A program made the translations under genes and the position numbers. 64,000 nucleotides of DNA from an uncultured Gemmatimonadaceae bacterium (GTDB lineage Bacteria > Gemmatimonadota > Gemmatimonadetes > Gemmatimonadales > Gemmatimonadaceae): NCBI GenBank assembly GCA_963751275.1, contig CAVVTZ010000009.1, positions 544,001 through 608,000 on the forward strand, given 5' to 3'. Under the pieces are notes generated by a model, which searched no databases, had not been told where the DNA came from, and saw only the letters and a program-made list of their open reading frames with translations. The first letter of the stretch is position 1. Every line of letters starts with the position of its first letter. This document shows, piece after piece, positions 17,527 to 47,525 of this stretch.

Positions 17527-17934
17527 GAACCCCGAACGCCGTGAGGCGCACCCCGAACGCCGTGAGGCGTGAGGCGTGCGAGGAACGGACTGTACGGCGT
17601 GAGCCGAACCCCTGACAGCGTGATTCGCGACCCACGCTCCGGCATTCGTCCCCCTAACGCCGGCGTGGGGTGCGCCTCACGCCTCACGCCCGTTCGTCGC
17701 ACGCCTCACGCCTCACGGCGTTCGTGCGCCTCACGCCTCACAGTCCGTTCGTCGCATGCCTCACGCCTCACGGCGTTCGGGGTGCGCCTCACGCCTCACA
17801 GTCCGTTCGTCGCACGACTCACGCCTCACGGCCTTCGGGGTGCGCCTCACGCCTCACAGTCCGTTCGTCGCATGCCTCACGCCTCACGGCGTTCGGGGGG
17901 ACGAACGACGGGGTTCGGGTCTCGCCTCACGCCG
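17527..17934. repeat. Composite repeat: inverted CCCGAACGCCGTGAGGCG units plus four tandem ~58-bp units built of CGCCTCA heptamers
   Basis: Units start at 17670, 17724, 17782 and 17840. The left part (about 17530-17600) is the reverse complement of the unit. Lies between convergent stop codons. Confidence 0.9.
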
Positions 17935-22070: not shown

Positions 22071-25000
22071 ATGAAGTGGCGAGTTCTGTCAGTACTCGCA
22101 GTCCTCGCGTTGATGCCGCTCGCGGCATCGGCGCAACAGCAGGAAGGCTTGATCACCGGGAAAGTGACCAGCGACGCCGGGGCCCCAGTGGCCGGCGCGC
22201 AGGTCTACATCGAGAAGATGAATCTCGGGACGCAGACCAAAGATGACGGCACGTACCGGATCGTGATCCCCGCCGGCCGCGCCAACGGCCAGCAGGCGTC
22301 GCTCAGCGTGAAGCTCATCGGCTTCAAGCCGAAGTCCATCCTGGTGTCGCTCAAGCCCACCACGCAGACCATGGACTTCGTGCTCGGCGCGCAGGCCGTG
22401 GTGCTGCAGCAGGTCGTGATCACCGGAGAAGGGATCATGACCACGAACGAGAAGCTCGGTGAGACCGTGAACACCGTGCACTCGGACGCGATCACGGGAT
22501 CGAATGAGTCGAACCTGACCAACGCACTGTCGGCGAAGGCGCCGAACGTGCAGGTGCAGTCGTCCTCGGGCGACCCGGGTTCCTCGACGTCGATCCAGAT
22601 CCGCGGCCTGAAGACGTTCTCGGGCGACGGCCAGCCGCTGTTCGTCGTGGACGGCGTGCCGCTGGACAATTCGTCGGTCGGCACCGACCAGTACGCCGTG
22701 GGCAACCAGGGGCAGGGTGTCGTCACCTCGAACCGCATTGCCGACGTCAATCCGAATGACATCGAGAGTGTGACGATCCTGAAGGGCGCCGCCGCGGCCG
22801 CGATCTACGGCGCGCGCGCGTCGCAGGGCGTCGTGCTGATCACCACCAAGAGCGGCAAGTCGGGACAGACGCGCTACTCGTTCACGAGTTCGCTGTCGCT
22901 GAACGACGTCACGCAGGGCTACCCGCTGCAGACGACGTACGGACTCGGCGCCAATGGCATTGCGGCCACCTGCGACGCGACCTCCCTCCCGGGCAGCACG
23001 GACGGGGGCAGCGACTGTCTCGTGAGCACCGCGCGTTCGTGGGGCCCGGCCTTCGCGTCGGGCACCACCACCTACGACCACTTCGGCGGAATGTTCACCA
23101 CGGGGACGCTGTGGGACAACATCCTGTCAATGTCGGGGGGCGATGACCGCCGGAGCTTCTACTTCTCGGCGGGCTACTCCGCCAACGCGGGCAATGTCAC
23201 CGGCAACCAGAACGACTACAATCGCGCGACGTTCAAGCTGAAGGGTTCGCAGATGGTCACGGACCAGATGCAGATCTCGGCGAACTTCAACTACGTGAAC
23301 GTCACCGGCAATTTCATCCAGCGCGGCGACAACGTGGACGGCATCATGCTCGGCTCGCTGCGCACGCCCGCGAACTTCAACAACTTCGTCTATCTGGACA
23401 GCGCGTCCGGCCTGCAGCGGTCGTACCGTTATCCGAACCCGAGCGCATTCTCGACGACCACCAGCCGCGGATTCGACAACCCGATCTGGGTGGCGAACTC
23501 GATGCCGGCGACGCAGGACCTGAACCGGTTCTACGGCAACTTCATGTTCAACTGGACGCCGCAGGACTACCTGACCGTCCAGTGGACCCCGGGCGTCGAC
23601 TATTACGCCGACCAGCGCCTGGAAGCGTTCCCGCAGACGTCCTCGGGCTTCCCAACGGGGCAGATCTTCCGCACCGACATGAACAGCTTCATCGTGTCGA
23701 GCCTGCTCACGGTGATCGGGTCGCACACGTTCAACCCGAATTTCTCGGGCACGTTGACCCTCGGCAACGAGCTCAACAGCCAGCAGTTCAACCAGAACTT
23801 CGTGCAGGGCTTCACGCTCATCACGCCGCAGCCCTACACGATCTCCAACACGGTCAGCTGGTTCCCGAACGACGATGAGACGCTGGTGCACCGCCAGTCG
23901 TACTTCGCCCAGGCGACCGCGGACCTGTTCGACCAGCTCTACCTGACGCTGGCGATCCGCAACGACGGCTTCTCGACCTTCGCCCAGAACGATCCGCGGG
24001 CGTGGTACCCGAAGGCCAGCGCCGCGTGGACGTTCACCAAGACCACGGGCGCCACCAACTGGCTCCAATACGGGAAGATCCGCGCGGCGTACGGCGAGAC
24101 GGGGAAGGAGCCGCAGGCGTACTCGACGCTCAACAACTATCAGGTCAACAAGATCTACGAGTACGGCGGCGTCGGGTTCCTGAACAGCGTGTATGAAGGG
24201 ATCCCCGGCCTCACGTCGTCGACCCGCGTCGGCAACGATGCGCTGCAGCCGGAGCGCTCCAAGGAGTGGGAAACGGGCTTCGACCTGGGCTTCTTCAATG
24301 GCATGTCGGACCTGAGCTTCTCGTACTACAACAGCAACACCACGCAGGTGATCTTCCAGGTGCCGCTGCCGCCCTCGAGCGGTTACCAGAGCCAGGTGCA
24401 GAACGGCGCCACGATCTCGAACAAGGGTTACGAGGTCCAGCTGAACTTCAACTCACAGGCGCAGGCGAAGCTGCAGTGGTCGCTCGGTCTGCTCTGGGCC
24501 CAGAACCGGAACAACGTCGAGGCCATCAACGGCGCATCCATCGTCTTCCTGCCGAATTCGATCGTGAATGCGGTGGCGAAGGTCGGTTCGCCGGTGGGTT
24601 CGATCTACGGATATGACTTCTACCGCTGCGGCAAAGGCGAGACCGTTGCCGGCGTCGACATCGACACCACGCCGACGACTGGCGGCGGCTGCGGCTCGGG
24701 CTACGCCAAGAACGCCATGTACATCGGCGCCGACGGCTTCCCGATCATCAACACCGATTCCAATATCGTGCTGGGCAGCGCGCAGCCGAACTGGACGGGC
24801 GCGATCCGCGGCTCGATCACGCCGTACAAGAACCTCCAGTTCTCCTTTCTGTTCGACATTCGCAACGGGAGCCAGGCCTACAACGGCACCCGCGGCGCGC
24901 TGTACGTGTACGGCACGCACAAGGACACCGAGGTCCGCGGCCAGCACCTGGTCTTCGGCACCTCGATCGATCCGGGCGCCGTGGCCGGACCGGGCGCGGG

Positions 25001-25329
25001 GTCGGCCGTGCTCATCGAATGCGAACTGGTTCCAGGGCGACGGCGGGTCGTTCGGCAACAACACCGCCAGCTTCGTGGAAGACGCCGGATTCACCAAGCT
25101 CCGTGAGATCGCCCTCGCGTACACGTGGGACGGACGCTGGGTGACGCACAATCTCGGCCTGAGCAGCCTCCAGCTGCGCGTGGCCGGCCGCAATCTCTAC
25201 ACCTGGACCAAGTACACCGGCATCGACCCCGAATTCAATCTCGAGGGCGTGGCGCTGGTGCAGGGGGTGGACTGGTTCAGCAATCCGCAGACGCGCTCCT
25301 TCGTCATGTCCATCACTCTCAACCGCTAA
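22071..25329 (+). CDS. SusC/RagA TonB-dependent receptor (copy 2); +1 frameshift near 25018
   Basis: GGAGG RBS and MKWRVLSVL signal. Paralogous to copy 1 throughout; the C-terminus continues in ORF 24568..25329 (NWFQGDG...ITLNR). Confidence 0.93.
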
Positions 25330-25344
25330 CCAGAGGTGAGCACA

Positions 25345-26799
25345 ATGAAGAAGCAACTCAAGCTCGCACTGGCGGCGGCGACTTCGGTGCTGCTGCTGGC
25401 AGGCTGCACGGACTTCCTCAAGGGTCCCGGCCTGAGCACCAACCCCAACGTGCCGACGACCGCTTCGGCCGACCAGCTGTGGGTCGGATCGCAGGTGGCC
25501 GTGATGGCGCAGTGGGAGAATTACCCGTTCATGCTGTTCTTCCTGTGGGCGCAGCAGATCTCCGGCGTGAACCGGCAGTGGCAGAACTACGCCCGCTTCC
25601 AGGCCGGGACCGATCAGAACGCCGCCGACGGCGCCTTCAACCAGACGTACGGCCCCGGCGGGCTCGTGGATCTGCGGCAGGTGGATACAATGGCCACGCA
25701 TGCCGGCAATATGAAGATGCGTGGTGAATCGGAAGTGCTCGAAGCGCTGTACATCGGAACGGCCGCCGATATCTTCGGCTCCGTCCCGTACAGCACCGCG
25801 CTCACTCCCGTGCCGACGTACGACACGCAGGCGGACGTGTATGATGAGGTGCAGACGACGCTGAACAACGCGATCAACGACCTCAACAGCGCGCCGTCAT
25901 CGACGAACGCCGGTCCGGTGGCCGACTTCTTCTTCGGGAACGACTACACGAAGTGGATCGCGGCCGCGAACACGCTCAAGGCGCGGTTCTTCATGCACAC
26001 CGCGCGCACGGGCGCCACGACGTACAGCGCCACGATCCTCGACTCCGTGATCAAGTACACGCAGATCGGGATCTCGAGCTCGGCCGGTGATCTGTCCACG
26101 ACCCACACGGGCACGCCGGGGGAGCAGAATCTGTTCTACAGCTTCCTCTTCAGCCGCGCGGGCGACGTGGAACCGGCCGCGATGCACATCAATCTGTCCA
26201 AGCAGGCGGGCGAGGCGGCGATGCTCACCCAGTATTACCTGCCGAACTCGATCGACAGCATCGTCGGTTCCGGCCCGGATGCTTCATCGCCGGGCGTTTC
26301 CGCGTTCGCTACGCAGCCCACGACGCCGGTGCCGATCGTGACCTACGTCGAGAACCAGATGCTGCTGGCGGAAGCCAACCTCATCAACGGGACCTCCGTT
26401 GGCGGGACGCCGCTGGCGATCCTGAACGCGTATCGCGCGACGGTGGGTGCGGCGGCGCTCGGTTCCTCGGGCGCGGTGCTCCACCAGAATATCATCCGCG
26501 AGAAGTACATCCACATCTTCTTCAATATCGAAGTGTGGGATGACTATCTCCGGACCTGCTATCCGAACGTTCCGATGACGGCTCAAATGCAGTCGCCCGG
26601 CGGAAGCGCGGGGCCGTACGTGCCCGCGCGGCTGCCGATCGGCATCACGGAACAGTCGGCGAACCCGAACGTCCCGGCGACCATCCCGGGCGGCCAGCCA
26701 ATGAACGGCAACGACGCCGCGAACCCGACCAATCCAAAGAATCTGGTGGATCTGGTAGGGGCCGCGTGCGCCGGACAAGTGAATCGGCCGGGGACTTGA
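25345..26799 (+). CDS. SusD/RagB lipoprotein (copy 2)
   Basis: LAGC lipobox, TNPNVP, KWIAAANTLKARF. Confidence 0.92.
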   Translation: MKKQLKLALAAATSVLLLAGCTDFLKGPGLSTNPNVPTTASADQLWVGSQVAVMAQWENYPFMLFFLWAQQISGVNRQWQNYARFQAGTDQNAADGAFNQTYGPGGLVDLRQVDTMATHAGNMKMRGESEVLEALYIGTAADIFGSVPYSTALTPVPTYDTQADVYDEVQTTLNNAINDLNSAPSSTNAGPVADFFFGNDYTKWIAAANTLKARFFMHTARTGATTYSATILDSVIKYTQIGISSSAGDLSTTHTGTPGEQNLFYSFLFSRAGDVEPAAMHINLSKQAGEAAMLTQYYLPNSIDSIVGSGPDASSPGVSAFATQPTTPVPIVTYVENQMLLAEANLINGTSVGGTPLAILNAYRATVGAAALGSSGAVLHQNIIREKYIHIFFNIEVWDDYLRTCYPNVPMTAQMQSPGGSAGPYVPARLPIGITEQSANPNVPATIPGGQPMNGNDAANPTNPKNLVDLVGAACAGQVNRPGT

Positions 26800-26821
26800 T
26801 ACTCCCGACGGTTGCCTGACG

Positions 26822-26862
26822 TGAAGAAGCCCGGGTCAATGTCGACCCGGGCTTCTTCATTT
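26822..26862 (+). terminator. Intrinsic terminator after susD2
   Basis: tgaagaagcccgggtc-loop-gacccgggcttcttca followed by ttt. Confidence 0.8.
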
Positions 26863-26889
26863 CCGCAACGCCAGGTCCGTACTTGGTGC

Positions 26890-27642
26890 CCCGAACGCCG
26901 TGAGTCACGAGGCGTACGTCGAACTGACTGTGCGGCGTGACTCGCAACCCGAACACCGTGAGTCGAGACCCGAGAGCCGTGACTCGTACCCCCAACGCCG
27001 CGAGTCACTCGTCAGCCCTCGGCGTGGGCGGGAGCGGGGGCTTCCCGGGACTTGCGGAGCATCACGCGCAGGATGCGCGAGATCGCCGAGTGGAGGCCAA
27101 TGCGCGAGTTCGCGACGGAGGGACTCAGTTGGTCGCGTGCGCGGTAGTACCACTCGCGGGACTCGCGCGCCGAACCGAGCGCATACTCGTAGAAGCGGGC
27201 GCGGTCGCGGCGGCCGAGTCGGCTGTATCCTTCGGCGATGTTCACGCCGCTCGATGCCGTGGCGCGTTTGAGTTGGTCCGCGACCTGCGCGGACTGGGGA
27301 TGCGCAATCAGTCGCTCCGCGTCCCGTGCCCCGAGCTCCGCGGCGTAGAGCGCGGCACGGTAAACGCGCATCCCCCAGATCGCATCACCACGGATCGCGA
27401 CTGGCACCAATGCTTCCCACATCTCGTATTTCACCGCTCGCCTCCGTACACGCAGGGGGCGGAACGATCGTGACGGACTGCCTACTCGCCATCACCGATT
27501 CGTTTCAACCGGAATCCCCCCGCCGCACTCACGGCGTTGGGGGTTCGAGTCACGGCTCTCGGGTGTCGACTCACGGTGTTCGGGTTGCGAGTCACGCCGT
27601 ACAGTCAGTTCGACGTACGCCTCATGACTCACGGCCTTCGGG
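26890..27642. mobile_element. Inverted-repeat cassette 1: 116-bp arms enclosing a four-helix-bundle gene
   Basis: Arms 26890-27005 and 27527-27642 are reverse complements with 6 mismatches and internal 21-bp subrepeats. Mobility is inferred. Confidence 0.7.
27012..27434 (-). CDS. Four-helix-bundle protein (23S rRNA IVS protein / bAvd-like family)
   Basis: RVY..A, DQLKRA..S...NIAEGY.R, RFYEYALGSARE; GGAGG RBS before GTG. Confidence 0.92.
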   Translation of the reverse strand: MKYEMWEALVPVAIRGDAIWGMRVYRAALYAAELGARDAERLIAHPQSAQVADQLKRATASSGVNIAEGYSRLGRRDRARFYEYALGSARESREWYYRARDQLSPSVANSRIGLHSAISRILRVMLRKSREAPAPAHAEG

Positions 27643-27643
27643 T

Positions 27644-28529
27644 CTAGTCCGGGATAGCGGTTCCCGGGAGAACGTACGTCAACGGGTCCACCGCGCGGCC
27701 GTTCACGTGGATCTCGTAATGCGAGATGCGGCCCCGTCGAGAGCCCCGTGTTGCCGATGTTCGCGATCACCTGGCCGCGCTTCACCTTCTGGCCGACCCG
27801 CACGACGATGCGCGAGCAGTGCGCGTACTTCGTGGTGATCCCGAAGCCGTGGTCGATCTCGAGCACGTTGCCGTAGCCCGTTTCCTTGCGCACGGCCGTG
27901 ACGACGCCGCCGGCGGGGGCGACGATCGGCGCGCCCATGGGCGCGCTCACGTCGATCCCCTCGTGCGGGCGCGCAATGTGCAGAATGGGATGGAAGCGCG
28001 AACGGCTGAACGTGCTCGAGAGCCAGCCGGCGGTGGGCATGATGCTCGGGATCGACTGGAATTTCGCGGCACCGGCGCGCAGCGTATCGGAGACCTCGGC
28101 GAAGCTCGCCGAGAGTGTTTTGGCGCGCGCGATCATGCCGTCGATGTCGGGCTCATCGCTGGCGAGTCCCAGCGCGGTGAGATCCCGCCTCGTGGAATCG
28201 TGGCGCGCGGCGTAGGTGTCATCCGAGGACAGCCCCGCGAGCAGGCGGATCTCCGTGTCGCGGCGGTCGATCTCCTCGAGCGTGGTGCTCAGCGTGTCGA
28301 TCTGCGCGCGGAGGGTGCCGACGGCCACGCGAAGGCTCGCGTCGTCCTGGCCGCGCAGGTAGCGCGAAATGGAATACGCCCCGATCCCGAGCCCGACCAG
28401 CGCCAGGACCGCCAGCGTTCCCACGCCATACATGGCCCAACGCGCGCCCCGCTCCGAGACATGGAGCTGGCGCGGCGAATCGGCCCCATGGGGGACGAGG
28501 AGGAGGGTCCAGCGGAGGGGAGAGGGCAA
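27644..28529 (-). CDS. M23 family metallopeptidase with TM helix and coiled coil; frameshift near 27722
   Basis: PSIMP..G, HEGID, YAH, GNTGLSTGPHL|HYEIHVNG..VDP; corrected stop TAG at 27644-27646. Confidence 0.9.
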
Positions 28530-28532
28530 AGG

Positions 28533-28662
28533 ACTTGGGAGTCGGGAGTCGGGAATCGAGGGTCTAAACCTACCCCTTTAAGACTCCCGGCGGGAGAGTG
28601 CCGTCACGGCCCTAATTGGGGTCCGAAGGCGCAGTTCCCGATTCCCGACTCCCGATTCCCGA
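28533..28662. repeat. Inverted pair of short heptamer tandem repeats (GGGAGTC / GACTCCC-type)
   Basis: gggagtcgggagtcgggaatcg versus ttcccgattcccgactcccgattcccg. Confidence 0.7.
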
Positions 28663-28671
28663 ACTTTACGC

Positions 28672-29340
28672 CTACTGGTAAAGCGCGGGAAACTCTTTCT
28701 TCAGCGCCTCGACCTTGGGTATGTCGTTGTAGACGATGTACGGCTGGTCCGGGTGCTTATCCAGGTAGCCCTGATGGTAGTCCTCGGCCGCGTAGAACTT
28801 CTTGAGCTGGGAGACTTCCGTCACGATCGGCGCCGGGTAGACCTTCGCGGCAGTGAGCTGCGCGATGTACGCCTTCGCGAGCTTTGCCTGCTCGGCGTTC
28901 GTGTAGAAGATGGCCGAGCGGTACTGCGTGCCGTGGTCGGGGCCCTGGTAGTTGAGCTCGGTGGGGTTATGCGCGACCGAGAAGAAGACCTTGAGCAGTT
29001 CGCCGTAGGTGATCTTGCTCGGATCGTAGATGACCTGCACCGATTCGGCGTGGCCGGTGGTGCCGGTGCTCACGAGTTCGTAGCCCGGGTCGCTCACTGT
29101 GCCGCCGGCGTAGCCGGAGGTGGAGGAGATGACGCCCTTCACATGCTCGAACACGGCCTGAACGCCCCAGAAGCAGCCGCCGGCGAACACGGCGGTGTCG
29201 CGCGCGGGGGCGGAGGCGAGGGCCGCATTCTGCTCGGGATCGGGCACAGGAACCGTCGCGCCAGCGTTGCCGCAGGCGATGGCGAGAGCAAGGGGGAGCA
29301 TCGCGATCATCATCGCGAGGTGGGGAATCGTGCCGCGCAT
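28672..29340 (-). CDS. msrA: Peptide-methionine (S)-S-oxide reductase, exported
   Basis: FAGGCFWG, TGHAE, QYRSAIF, AEDYHQ; N-terminal lipoprotein-like signal. Confidence 0.97.
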   Translation of the reverse strand: MRGTIPHLAMMIAMLPLALAIACGNAGATVPVPDPEQNAALASAPARDTAVFAGGCFWGVQAVFEHVKGVISSTSGYAGGTVSDPGYELVSTGTTGHAESVQVIYDPSKITYGELLKVFFSVAHNPTELNYQGPDHGTQYRSAIFYTNAEQAKLAKAYIAQLTAAKVYPAPIVTEVSQLKKFYAAEDYHQGYLDKHPDQPYIVYNDIPKVEALKKEFPALYQ

Positions 29341-29417
29341 GGTAGGTCTCCTTCGGTGGTGTGTTCAAGTTCATTGAACCAATACTTCGTGATCATGCGA
29401 GTTCCGTGACTGCGAAC

Positions 29418-30101
29418 CCCGAACTCCGTACTTGGTCACCCGAACTCCGCCATTGGCAACTGAGGCATGGTCACGGCTCAGGCGGTGCTAGCAAGGGGCG
29501 GGCGCGTGGGGGAATGCGATGTCGCGTGAAATGGGACGGTGATGAGAGGGGGTCGGCGATACGTGATCATCATTCATCGTCGGCCGGAGGAATCAGTGAG
29601 CTACGAAGCGTGGGAAATGTCGGTGCCCGAACACATCAAGACCGATCCGTTGTGGGGACTTCGCGTTTATCGTGCTGCCATGTACGCCGCCGAGGTCGGG
29701 CGGCGCGACTCGGCGTGGCTGGCGAGAAAACAGGGATTCGAGGAACTGGCGCAACAACTGAGACGATCGACGTCATCGATCCCCGCGAACATGGCGGAGG
29801 GCTACAGCCGCAATGGTAAGCGCGATCGGAATCGCTTCTACGAATACGCCCTGGGCTCCGCGCGCGAATCGCGCACTTGGTACTATCAAGCGCGTGATGT
29901 GCTCGGCCCCAACGCCACGCACTCCCGCATCGCCCTGCACACCACCATCGCCCGCATTCTCGCAGTCCTTGTTCGCCGAGACCGCGAGGCAGCCGTGCCC
30001 ATCACCGAACCCGAACCATAACGATTCCCATATCCGCACAAGCCGTGACTACGCCTCAGTTGCCAATGGCGGAGTTAGGGTGACCAAGTACGGCGTTCGG
30101 G
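29418..30101. mobile_element. Inverted-repeat cassette 2: 61-bp arms enclosing a four-helix-bundle gene
   Basis: Arms 29418-29478 and 30041-30101 with 4 mismatches; sits between msrB and msrA. Confidence 0.7.
29596..30021 (+). CDS. Four-helix-bundle protein, paralog of 27012..27434
   Basis: GGAGG RBS and GTG29596 align with the paralog's start; QQLRRS..SIPANMAEGYSR and RFYEYALGSARESR.WYY. Confidence 0.92.
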   Translation: MSYEAWEMSVPEHIKTDPLWGLRVYRAAMYAAEVGRRDSAWLARKQGFEELAQQLRRSTSSIPANMAEGYSRNGKRDRNRFYEYALGSARESRTWYYQARDVLGPNATHSRIALHTTIARILAVLVRRDREAAVPITEPEP

Positions 30102-30102
30102 T

Positions 30103-30705
30103 CTAGGAAGTCTTCACGAACTTGAGAGCGACCGAATTGATGCAGTATCGAAGCCCCGTGGGTTTCGGCCCGTCTTCGAATACATGCCCTTGATGCGCAT
30201 CGCACCGCTTGCATTTGATCTCCGCCTTCGCGCCGTAGCCGGTGTACGGCGTCTCGAGCACGTTGTCCTGCGCGATCGGCTGCCAGAAGCTCGGCCAGCC
30301 GGTGCCGGAGTCGAACTTGGCGGCCGAGCTGAACAGCGCGGTATCGCAACAGATGCACCGGTAGATCCCGGCGTCGTGGAATTCGTCGTACTGGCCGGTG
30401 AAGGCGCGCTCGGTGCCTTCCTGCCGCGTGATGTAGTACGATTCCGGCGACAGCTGCGCTTTCCATTCCGCGTCGGTCTTCATGATCTTCGGCACCTTCT
30501 TCGCGCCGAGGTTCTTGCCGGCGGCGGAGAATTCGACGATGAGCACGTCGGTCATGGCAGTCATTGCGTCGAGGGGCGGGAGGTTCGTCTTGCGGCGGAA
30601 GGCGGCGAGCATCGCGGTGGCGGCGGCGACGCCGCCGGCCGCGAGGAACGCGCGCCGCGAACTGGGCGCGAACATGAAGTCGCTCCCCGGATCGGTCTTG
30701 GTCAT
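30103..30705 (-). CDS. msrB: Peptide-methionine (R)-S-oxide reductase with Tat signal
   Basis: [32 protein letters not shown], two CxxC motifs; SRRAFL Tat motif. Confidence 0.97.
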
Positions 30706-30803
30706 GGTTGCGTTGGGTTGTGGTGCCGGTACGCCATATGAACCTGTACGCGCCGAATTGGTTCCCGGATTGACATTAAGCGAACTTCCTCCGAAATCAT
30801 ACC

Positions 30804-32039
30804 ATGCAGATTAGAATCGGAACCATCGCCGTAGCGCTGTGGCTGGCCGCGGGCACGAGTCCGTCCCTCGCACAGACCCCGCCGGCAACAGTCGCCAGTC
30901 GACAGTCGACGTCTGCCGTTGTCGTTCTCGCATTCGACGGCTTCGCCCGCCGTTACCTGGACCAGGACTCCGCGCCCACCTTCCACATGCTGGCGCGCGA
31001 GGGGGTGCTGGCCGACGCGATGATCCCCAGCTTCCCGACTCTCACCTTCCCGAATTTCTACACACTCGCCACGGGATTGTACCCCGCGCATACGGGGATC
31101 GTGAACAACCGATTTTGGGACCCGTCGTTCAACGCGATGTTCATCTACACGGGGGCGATGGCCAAGGAGGCGCGATGGTGGGGCGGGGAACCGATCTGGG
31201 CCACCGCGCAGAAGCAGGGGCTGCGCAGCGCGTCGATGTTCTGGGTGGGGAGCGAGGCGCCGATCGAGGGGATCCAGCCGACGATCTTCATTCCCTTCGA
31301 CAAGCGGATCCAGTTCGAGTCGCGCGTGGTGCAGATGCTCAGCTGGCTGTCGCTGCCGGATTCCGTGCGGCCGAACCTGATCATGGGGTACTTCGAGGAG
31401 CCCGACCATACGGGGCACGACTTCGGCCCCGACGCGCCGGAGACGGCAGCGCAGGTGCTGCGCGCGGACAGCATGCTCGCGATGTTCGTGAACGGGCTGC
31501 GCGCGCGCGGGCTGTACGACAAGGTGAATCTCCTCGTGCTCGCCGACCACGGGATGGCCACGATCTCCAAGGATCGCGTGCTGTATCTGGACGACGCGGT
31601 CGATTCCGCGAGCGTGCGGGTGGTGGGAGAGACGAGCCCCGTGCTCACGATCAGCGCGCGCGATGGGAATGATTCTGCGCTCGTGCGGCAGCTTCGCACA
31701 CTGCCCCATCTCACCGTGTGGCCCAAGGACAGCATTCCCTCGCGGCTGCATTTCTGCTGCAACGCGCGCATCACTTCGGTGGTCGCGGTGACGGACGACG
31801 GCTGGAGCATCACGTGGCGGCACGCGAAGCCATCGAAGCAGCGGGGCGCGCACGGCTATGACAACGCGGACCCGAACATGCGGGCGCTGTTCATCGCGCA
31901 CGGGCCGGCGTTCAAGGCGGGCACGACTCTGCCGGCGTTCGAGAATGTGAATGTCTACTCGCTGATCGCGGATCTGCTCGGTGTGACGCCGGCGCCGAAT
32001 GACGGGAGCCTGGCGCCGTTCGCGGCAGTATTGAAGTAG
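30804..32039 (+). CDS. Type I nucleotide pyrophosphatase/phosphodiesterase
   Basis: [40 protein letters not shown]. Confidence 0.95.
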
Positions 32040-35634: not shown

Positions 35635-35796
35635 CCCCTAACCACGTACTTGGTCCCCCGAACGCCGTGTTTGGCAGGGGAGGCGTGGCAACGGAACACG
35701 GCGTCCTTGGTATTGAAAACCCCAAGGACGCTAGAGCCGTTACCACCACTCAGTTGCCAAACACGGGGTTCGGGGGACCAAATACGCCGTACAGGG
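35635..35796. repeat. Empty hairpin element of the IR-cassette family
   Basis: cgtacttggtcccccgaacgccgtgtttggca ... tgccaaacacggggttcgggggaccaaatacg. Confidence 0.85.
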
Positions 35797-43244: not shown

Positions 43245-43390
43245 CGCGTGTGGGGCCTCGTACCGCTCGAACGGCGCGTCTGGGAGGCAGCGTGTGGTAC
43301 GGCTCTGCGGGAGTGGTACTACTCACGCCGAGCGGTACTACACGCTGCCTCCCAGACGCGCCGTTCGAGCGGTACGAGGCCCCACATGCG
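43245..43390. repeat. About 146-bp near-perfect palindrome between convergent genes
   Basis: Perfect 47-bp arms at 43249-43295 and 43340-43386, extending inward with a few mismatches. Confidence 0.92.
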
Positions 43391-46342: not shown

Positions 46343-46559
46343 TCACTACAACTGCCTGGAGGCAGATGACGCGGATGACGCGGAAAATCGCGGACCGCTC
46401 CTTGCGGCGTACGAGCACCTGGGGCGGCGGCGAACCGCCTACTTGCTGTTTACAACAAAGACAAGAACTGTCCAGCGACTCGCTGAATGTCGAGCGAGCG
46501 CGGAACGATCTGCGTTCTCCGCGCCCTCCGCGTCATCCGCGTACAAGCAGTTGTGGTGA
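46343..46559. repeat. Spaced inverted repeat built from 9-mer units (ACGCGGATG)
   Basis: tcactacaactgc/gcagttgtggtga and acgcggatgacgcgga/tccgcgtcatccgcgt. Confidence 0.75.
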
Positions 46560-47322: not shown

Positions 47323-47368
47323 AACTACAAACTAATCGCGGCACGAATCACCACGAACGTCAGTGGCA

Positions 47369-47510
47369 CCCCGGACTCCGTATTTGGTCCCCCGAACGCC
47401 GTTGATAGCAATTGAGGCGTGGTCACGGCTAAGGCGTTCCTAGAAACGCCCTAGCCGTGACCACGCCTCAATTGCTATCGACGGCGTTCGGGGACTAAGT
47501 ACGCAGTTCG
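47369..47510. repeat. Empty hairpin element, a close relative of the cassette 2 arms
   Basis: Arms at about 47379-47431 and 47452-47503; aligns with 29418-29490. Confidence 0.9.
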
Positions 47511-47525
47511 TAGTGCGATGCAAGT

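Follow-up and report, generated by a model that had tools for sequence, protein, structure and literature searches.

Why should a small gene for a helical-bundle protein be packed between two long inverted arms, outside rRNA and with no transposase beside it? The question is raised by positions 26890-27642 of a 64,000-nt stretch of DNA from an uncultured Gemmatimonadaceae bacterium (GenBank assembly GCA_963751275.1, contig CAVVTZ010000009.1, forward-strand positions 544,001-608,000). This stretch, which we call the window, is part of contig C9 of the metagenome-assembled genome (MAG) G000, which comprises 3.1 Mb in 14 contigs and is 83% complete. An earlier note, made from the letters alone, had compared the locus with the intervening sequences (IVSs) of 23S rRNA and had suggested a self-contained mobile or excisable module of RNA and protein.

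Here, we will refer to the locus as cassette 1; c1-c6 denote the six PF05635 cassettes of G000 and their genes, L### denotes loci across genomes, and C# the contigs of G000. What is new is that the arms of cassette 1 are members of a family of gene-less hairpins, and that gene-less and flipped states are found at orthologous sites. We put at about one half the probability that cassette 1 is a transposase-less hairpin element with a life at the DNA level, its gene-bearing copy standing among gene-less ones as a RAYT gene stands among REPINs, and its RNA stem being a tolerated or insulating by-product.

Cassette 1 and its protein

The two arms are 116 nt long and 95% complementary, with exactly 6 mismatches and 521 nt between them, which makes 753 nt for the whole. 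Three families of direct repeats inside each arm (D1-D3) have start-to-start spacings of 58, 21 and 21 nt, giving 21-nt subunits and one 58-nt unit; the repeat search and the listing of mismatches thus agree with the earlier description of the arms and add the longer unit to it. If up to 3 mismatches are allowed, the window contains 19 copies of the unit motif CCCGAACRCCGTGAGTC where 0.95 are expected, and none of 100 shuffles reaches 19. A position-weight logo of the 21-nt unit was dropped, as chance CCGAAC matches dominated it.

The layout is asymmetric, with a 92-nt leader at the 5' side and 6 nt from stop codon to arm at the 3' side. Besides c1, the loop holds no Pfam-supported gene, no transposase and no recombinase, as had been said of it before. 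An Rfam scan of 26000-31000 returned no rRNA or other family at the gathering score, and a sigma-70 scan of 26700-30300 returned 0 matches with a consensus that is uninformative for this phylum. By eye, a GATGA- or GGTGATG-like word stands about 55-85 nt upstream of the start in many c1-type leaders (27470-27500 and 29535-29560 in the window; L092-L110); this recurrent word could be a promoter or regulatory element.

Metagenome contigs independent of the MAG span 27142-27421 and 27412-27563 with 0-1 differences. A search of sequencing runs listed no RNA run that contains the stretch. From four DNA runs of soil or rhizosphere, only short contigs of low depth were obtained, none of which bridges or skips cassette 1; a contig joint listed as 'skips 1431' was disregarded because one of its sides is only 21 nt at less than 95% likeness.

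The earlier assignment of the product to the four-helix-bundle family holds. Protein c1 matches TIGR02436 ('four helix bundle protein') at 52.9 bits (cut-off 24) and PF05635 at 47.4 bits (E 2.4e-12, cut-off 33.8), the latter partially, over positions 28-82 of 106. Its AlphaFold2 model, built with 22 relatives, has four long helices at a pLDDT of 94.4, and the top Foldseek matches of the model are BT_0352 (2RLD; 2rld_E, E 3.7e-4, TMt 0.90) and Xcc0516 (2GSC, TMt 0.84). The structural kinship to bAvd of diversity-generating retroelements (DGRs), also claimed earlier, is seen as well (4DWL, 8UB7; TMt 0.81, rmsd 1.9 A), though the Foldseek E-value is weak, about 0.5.

The family motif RxxxSxxxNxxEG is present in c1 as R57, S61, N65, E68 and G69; in an alignment of 22 sequences S61 and G69 never vary, and conservation of N65 and E68 is at least 90%. 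The PF05635 consensus appears as GxxRxxxSxxxNxxE in PMC3936711. The Avd model NF033474 has no match in c1 and reaches 21 bits in c3 against a cut-off of 80, and PADLOC finds no match for c1, c2 or c3. Proteins c1, c2 and c6 are one subfamily; the c1 type is marked by an N-terminal YxxWE extension and is present in 31 of 121 genomes of the family. In 14 ortholog or paralog pairs, dN/dS of the four-helix-bundle genes ranges from 0.015 to 0.15, and on this sequence evidence the proteins are under purifying selection and functional.

Armed cassettes, gene-less hairpins and orthologous sites

Is cassette 1 an isolated case? A whole-genome search of G000 finds six PF05635 genes, every one of them flanked by inverted arms (27-116 nt) that enclose a loop of 448-575 nt, and genome self-comparison adds a seventh, frameshifted copy at C2:57227-58139 with arms of up to about 190 nt. 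The self-comparison yields 35 inverted repeat (IR) pairs with loops of 250-1300 nt (about 30 loci), of which six loci hold PF05635 and one PF13366. Other IR-bracketed genes of G000 were rejected as cassettes, at least two of those inspected being ordinary genes between two complete hairpins.

We extended the count to the genus, that is, G000 with its sister genomes G002, G004 and G005 (the last a single 3.3-Mb contig). Each locus was scored by the best local alignment of the 300-350 nt upstream of the gene with the reverse complement of an equal length downstream, and windows displaced by 800-1900 nt inside the same loci were scored identically as controls. All 32 PF05635 loci analysed in the four genomes score at least 24.5. 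Six of them are from G000 and 26 from the sister genomes, where 29 match rows were reduced by three (L087 belongs to the same locus as L085, and L090 to that of L074, while L089 lies under the Pfam cut-off).

At the level of the order, 24 of the 29 best-per-genome loci drawn from 40 relatives score at least 18, compared with 1 of 106 shifted controls; three are without an IR. A wider sample, taken from one-genome-per-species contigs as the best 80 relatives of the canonical paralog c3 and hence non-random for the family, covers 12 or more phylum-level groups (Gemmatimonadota, Acidobacteriota, Planctomycetota, Chloroflexota, Alpha- and Gammaproteobacteria, Actinomycetota, Bacteroidota and others); here 62 of 80 loci reach 18 against 0 of 422 controls, and 68 of 80 reach 15 against 4 of 422. 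The c1-type subfamily, with longer and more varied units, scores at least 18 at 16 of 18 analysable loci. The earlier note had proposed examining the flanks of other family members, and IRs do surround most of them: enclosure by inverted arms is the majority state of the PF05635 family, though not a rule.

The design is also consistent in its details. Arms in the wide sample have a period of 7 almost throughout, and the sense strand of the 5' arm reads nGGGAnn or a related G-rich heptamer. Among 32 IR-positive loci, the 3' arm begins between -124 and +68 nt from the stop codon, mostly within 25 nt and often overlapping it, and this arm often encodes the C-terminus of the protein; the 5' arm ends 56-261 nt ahead of the Pfam match.

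When the six cassettes of G000 are compared with the genome by BLAST, each gives 19-146 matches, nearly all of them to the arms. Counting as a hairpin locus any inverted repeat with a loop of at most 150 nt and a span of at least 50 nt, we find 353 in G000, with a median of 151 nt and a total of 55.6 kb, about 1.8% of the genome. The six arm types account for 154 of the 353 (c2 48, c6 41, c1 26, c5 19, c3 17 and c4 3). The arms of cassette 1 belong to the commonest repeat family of the genome, and 'self-contained', the earlier word for the module, is too strong for a gene whose arms are shared with large gene-less families. Single-linkage clustering merges the c1, c2 and c6 hairpin types into a superfamily of 118 loci, which matches the grouping of the three proteins. 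By eye, several array ends read AGTAGC or AGTGGC ahead of the first unit.

Some gene-less families of G000 have no gene copy in the assembly, namely GGGACTC (17 loci), GACGGCG..TGTGAC (17) and GGGAAAC (11); across these three families, gene-bearing cassettes with such arms exist in sister genomes (L072; L078, L080, L081; L069). Dimers of GGGAAGC number 184, 122 and 116 in the three genomes with a GGGAAGC-armed gene and 15 in G000, where no such gene was found.

A small PD-(D/E)XK gene is a second type of cargo in the same kind of cassette. Genes of PF13366 (128.8 bits) lie in the loops of ACAGGAT- or ACATGAT-type arms at C7:952020-952538 and C7:943262-943597, and at L192 in G005. Among the intact PF13366 genes of the four genus genomes, 3 of 8 are in IR loops and the other 5 adjoin a complete hairpin. 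The 59 gene-less hairpins of ACAGGAT type cluster with those of c3 type in one component of 76 loci, and both the ACAGGAT-type hairpins and a 20-locus CGCGGAT family are tied to PF13366 genes. In the window, the inverted repeat at 46343-46559 has 45-nt arms, composed of GATGACGCGGA-type units, around a loop of 127 nt; it resembles the CGCGGAT family that accompanies PF13366.

Orthologous sites show how the loci differ between close relatives. Cassette 1 lies between susD and the gene of an M23 peptidase. The flanks of this site show 82-87% identity across the genus, and what stands between them varies: the 753-nt cassette in G000, a gene-less hairpin of about 250 nt from the same family of 21/58-nt units in both G002 and G005, and in G004 (L032:590-1170) an asymmetric array of about 590 nt, made of related units of 37-49 nt in tandem, with about 5 copies on one side against about 11 on the opposite side. 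The G004 array shows rapid expansion of units at this site. Different stop codons follow the last M23 codon, GAC: TAG in G000, TGA in both G002 and G005, and TAA in G004. The junction has therefore been remade. A comparison of this site with its orthologs, suggested in the earlier note, thus shows that the cassette is not fixed.

Mapping the flanks of the genus cassettes to G000 gives eight sites common to at least two genomes. The orientation of the gene relative to the flanks is opposite between genomes at three of the eight (the c4 site, C2:57 kb and C11:13.8 kb). G002 and G004 carry a gene at a site that in G000 (C11:13727-13947) is occupied by a gene-less hairpin. At C7:447.5 kb, the hairpin of G000 is likewise gene-less and has ACAGGAT-type arms, and G002 has a four-helix-bundle cassette with GGCCATC arms there. 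In the case of c2, the G005 copy is degraded (32 bits, a 57-aa open frame), and both of its arms are changed yet complementary. Gene-bearing, gene-less and flipped states at the same sites point to a mobile type of element.

Table 1. Cassettes, related hairpins and adjoining features in the window.
Feature	Position	Strand	Details
5' arm of cassette 1, upstream of gene	27527..27642	-	116 nt; one 58-nt unit and 21-nt units
Leader of cassette 1, 5' arm to GTG start	27435..27526	-	92 nt; GGAGG 6 nt ahead of start; putative promoter
Four-helix-bundle gene c1	27012..27434	-	140 aa, GTG start, pI 10.2; PF05635 / TIGR02436
3' arm of cassette 1	26890..27005	-	begins 6 nt past stop codon
Extra 21-nt repeat unit (CGTACTTGGTG type) outside left arm	26868..26889		no mirror copy on right
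TAG stop of M23 peptidase gene	27644..27646	-	one base past arm end (...TTCGGG T CTA)
Perfect 16-bp hairpin followed by T-run, probably susD terminator	26822..26859	+	outside cassette; kept in sister genomes
5' arm of cassette 2	29418..29485	+	68 nt, 90% complementary to partner
Four-helix-bundle gene c2	29596..30021	+	141 aa from GTG; PF05635 E 4e-16; divergent from msrA
3' arm of cassette 2	30034..30101	+	begins 12 nt past stop codon
Gene-less hairpin array, c1 arm family	17540..17898		58-nt and 21-nt units
Gene-less hairpin, c2 arm family	35645..35786		inverted repeat
Gene-less perfect palindrome, c6 arm family	43245..43390		73-nt arms
Gene-less hairpin, c2 arm family	47366..47516		TTGGCAA..TGAGGCGTGGTCACGGCT in common with inner arm of cassette 2

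The susD gene next to cassette 1 is identified by PF12771, and c1 is co-oriented with the M23 gene upstream of it. Cassette 2 (29418-30101) is 2 kb away, between msrA and msrB, and its junction with the msrB stop codon (30103-30105) is built as at M23: the arm end, one base and then the TAG of the neighbour (...TTCGGG T CTA).

Two reading frames near cassette 1 are broken. In the M23 gene (27716-27728, minus strand), one extra base at about 27722-27723 disrupts the frame (HLHYEIHVNG...IPD*); the frame is intact in G004, and metagenome contig X3 omits one base at 27723. An indel from assembly, or else a difference between strains, is the probable cause. In the SusC/TonB receptor gene at about 24900-25330, the C-terminal barrel segment continues in another frame (ORF 24568-25329), and this second frameshift in the window suggests indel errors in this MAG. 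Elsewhere in G000, the right flank of the c6 cassette (L005, C10:15327-16026) corresponds in three sister genomes (L079, L084, L086) to C11:340.7 kb of G000 and not to C10, so that at the cassette there is either a rearrangement or a join made in assembly.

Weighing the readings

How would a DNA-level hairpin element of this kind work? Cassette 1 would be its gene-bearing copy, made of a tandem-unit 5' arm, a leader of about 90 nt, an open reading frame (ORF) for a basic protein of the Avd/S23p type and a complementary 3' arm abutting the stop codon. With only a short loop between them, such arms recur in G000 as dozens of gene-less hairpins; these would be its non-autonomous relatives, much as an autonomous element stands among miniature inverted-repeat transposable elements (MITEs). 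The sole encoded protein is a helical bundle of about 140 aa that carries no known catalytic motif. Elements would spread or be exchanged as DNA, through recombination driven by the hairpin or by arm homology, or through template switching; the gene would be gained or lost within the hairpin, and arm-to-arm recombination would invert the loop. The protein, which is probably oligomeric, would bind the repeated units of its own arm family and act in maintenance or spread. The gene would be transcribed from a promoter in the leader, and the stem of any read-through RNA would permit trimming by RNase III, as in 23S rRNA IVSs, so that an insertion could be tolerated inside transcripts.

Arm sequences bear on the proposed recognition by the protein. 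Close orthologs (L079/L086, L076/L083 and the C11_6k trio) show 92-99% identity in the arms against 81-89% in the leader, whereas distant pairs show no such excess. L066 and L072, two G002 loci with homologous flanks, have the same arm framework, but the three heptamers of each arm have all changed together, reading GGGAAGC in L066 and GGGACTC in L072. Both loci are in a MAG that is 63% complete with 3% contamination, and a duplication or the binning of two strains may account for them. The idea that the protein reads a 'heptamer code' was tried on the tree and rejected (33 label changes versus a shuffled mean of 36.1 and minimum of 33).

Several points weigh against this element, and one should keep them in mind. 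The high conservation of arms could come from gene conversion among many copies and not from a protein that reads them, and the near-identical proteins L148 and L189 carry AGGGAAC and AGGGAAT, which ties the heptamer loosely to protein sequence. G005 has 68 GGGACTC dimers and no GGGACTC-armed gene that we could find; gene presence predicts repeat copy number in one of the two families tested, which is anecdotal. The c2 site, between msrA and msrB, is occupied in all four genus genomes and syntenically fixed, and the breadth of the armed layout leans in part on a sample that is non-random for the family. No transposition event, target duplication or excision product was seen.

The arrival of c1 at the susD-M23 site appears undatable and unpolarised, and loss in three lineages is possible. 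Protein c1 has no close relative, the nearest among the 121 family genomes having 69% amino acid identity, and the nucleotide identity of the gene to the clade at the C2 site is 68-73%; for the latter reason, a recent duplication of the C2:57 kb copy was rejected as its source.

As to enzymes, neither PF01797 (RAYT/Y1) nor PF00078 (reverse transcriptase) has a match in G000, G002, G004 or G005, while control genomes matched both (6/14 in the case of PF01797); these genomes are 63-89% complete by marker genes, and a trans-acting enzyme may have escaped the search. No target-site duplication is evident at 26868-26890 or 27642-27650, and the genome-wide transposase search covered PF01797. To our knowledge, no DNA-cleaving chemistry has been described for a four-helix bundle.

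One alternative, which we consider unlikely, places the function in RNA. The arms would be selected as a double-stranded stem for RNase III, which would free the four-helix-bundle mRNA and spare the host transcript, and the gene-less hairpins would be the same signal without cargo. Such behaviour, with RNase III in vitro, is documented for ORF-bearing 23S rRNA IVSs (PMC4990558), whose stem-ORF-stem layout is indeed that of cassette 1, and PF05635 genes have also been reported between cas genes (18 cases; PMC3936711) and in rRNA inserts of bacteria of the candidate phyla radiation (CPR; PMC11270868). In silico, a 773-nt sense transcript forms the full arm-arm stem (-503 kcal/mol, z = -24) with the ORF in the loop, as had been foreseen, and because c1 is co-oriented with the M23 gene upstream, read-through would include both arms.

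The arms themselves speak against selection as RNA. Over 1522 pairs in the arms of 32 cassettes, mismatches comprise 32 G-U, 32 A-C and 80 others, with no excess of sense-strand wobble (binomial p = 1). Units are arranged in tandem and conserved in sequence (nGGGAnn across phyla), and arms are more conserved than the leader; pairing alone needs neither. Loops flip their orientation, and c2, being divergent from msrA, cannot rely on an upstream transcript and thus needs its own promoter. For these reasons the RNA stem is not, in our view, the main selected function; the want of G-U excess and the flips between species both point to dynamics of DNA and not of RNA.

Could the hairpins and the genes be separate things? 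Under this alternative, to which we also give little credence, the hairpins are an independent REP-like system, serving the host or moved by a factor in trans, and the four-helix-bundle and PD-(D/E)XK genes are selfish passengers that home into the loops or are captured there through recombination of one arm with the other. The susD-M23 site fits gain of a gene into an existing hairpin, since only G000 has the gene and the other three genomes of the genus have a hairpin or array without one. Large gene-less families exist in genomes that lack their gene copy, two unrelated types of cargo occupy the loops, and the two states of the C7:447.5 kb site differ in arm type as well as in the gene. Against it, arm type tracks protein lineage: c1, c2 and c6 all have 21-nt GAAC..CG..TGG units, canonical proteins go with heptamer arms, and Planctomycetota proteins of one clade go with AGGTC-type units. 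Orthologs keep their arms, and a 3' arm that abuts or overlaps the stop codon, and often encodes the C-terminus, makes gene and arms one unit.

It is very improbable that the arms are iteron-like operators, for autoregulation or for silencing of read-through, in a domesticated and immobile regulatory unit. A basic protein (pI 10.2), units repeated at a 21-nt period or as heptamers, the fixation of c2 in four genomes and purifying selection on the proteins would all suit such a role, but it leaves unexplained the at least 154 gene-less copies, the polymorphism of sites, the flips and the decaying copies, as well as the PF05635 genes inside rRNA and cas operons reported in PMC11270868 and PMC3936711. 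An assembly artefact or a chance inverted repeat can be practically dismissed: the MAG apparently has indel errors, such as the M23 frameshift at about 27722, but all 32 loci of the genus show the layout, as do 62 of the 80 from other assemblies, and the independent metagenome contigs agree with it.

Relation to described systems and significance

The nearest described system is the ORF-bearing 23S rRNA IVS, and cassette 1 lacks its defining location in rRNA. In PMC4990558, the examples are Coxiella burnetii, with S23p in helix 45, and Leptospira; the stem of terminal IRs is cut by RNase III in vitro, the IVSs measure 428-759 nt, the Coxiella stem has 28 bp, a selfish, element-like character is proposed, and S23p of Coxiella is suggested not to be made in vivo. 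Cassette 1 shares with these IVSs the PF05635 family, the stem-ORF-stem layout with terminal IRs around an ORF of about 120-140 aa, and the size class. Unlike them, it lies outside rRNA (IVSs are inside the 23S gene, in helix 9, 25 or 45); its arms are four times longer than the Coxiella stem and consist of tandem units of a dispersed gene-less family. In contrast to Coxiella S23p, the proteins here are under purifying selection, and for cassette 1 an RNase III step is presumed by analogy.

PF05635 proteins are treated as Avd homologs in PMC10053308, and the 8UB7 entries, by their titles, show Avd of DGRs in a ribonucleoprotein with reverse transcriptase. A homologous fold and a basic protein are common to bAvd and c1. 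In place of a TR/VR pair, inverted arms surround the gene here; c1 has no NF033474 match, and the search of the genus genomes found no reverse transcriptase.

Two further systems offer parallels in the organization of DNA. REPINs are numerous intergenic palindromes; the rare RAYT gene, a Y1/HUH transposase, is flanked by inverted repeats of its own type, and a GTAG tag marks the stem-loop. Dispersed palindromes, a gene flanked by inverted repeats of its own family and several gene/repeat pairs per genome recur here, whereas the flanked gene encodes a four-helix bundle instead of a Y1/HUH enzyme and the arms are tandem 7- or 21-nt units. MITEs are short gene-less derivatives that outnumber gene-bearing copies and share their terminal sequences. 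The same holds for the hairpins of G000, which are far more numerous than the cassettes and have terminal sequences in common with them; unlike in MITEs, the full-length copy has no transposase, no target-site duplication was recognised, and the whole arm is repeated and internally tandem. Outside subscription journals, which were not covered, we found no description of an armed cassette outside rRNA or of its tie to dispersed hairpins.

A wider proposal, which we offer tentatively and would ourselves not bet on, is that PF05635/TIGR02436 proteins are the element-encoded, repeat-recognising factors of a very widespread class of transposase-less hairpin elements. The gene-less hairpins would then be non-autonomous, REPIN-like progeny, the ORF-bearing 23S rRNA IVSs would be copies that landed in rRNA, and parallel families would use PD-(D/E)XK proteins.

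TIGR02436/PF05635 is a very large family with no assigned function, and its only known settings are rRNA IVSs and, by homology, Avd of DGRs. A cassette design that is nearly constant across phyla, together with abundant gene-less hairpins and no RAYT found, suggests a testable function for the family, the binding of tandem 7- or 21-nt units, and offers a possible origin for rRNA IVSs. The hairpin system would account for about 1.8% of the genome of this bacterium and for local rearrangements, namely loop inversions and a break of synteny at one cassette. Spread that is mediated by the protein and needs no classical transposase would, if it occurs, be a new mode of mobility.

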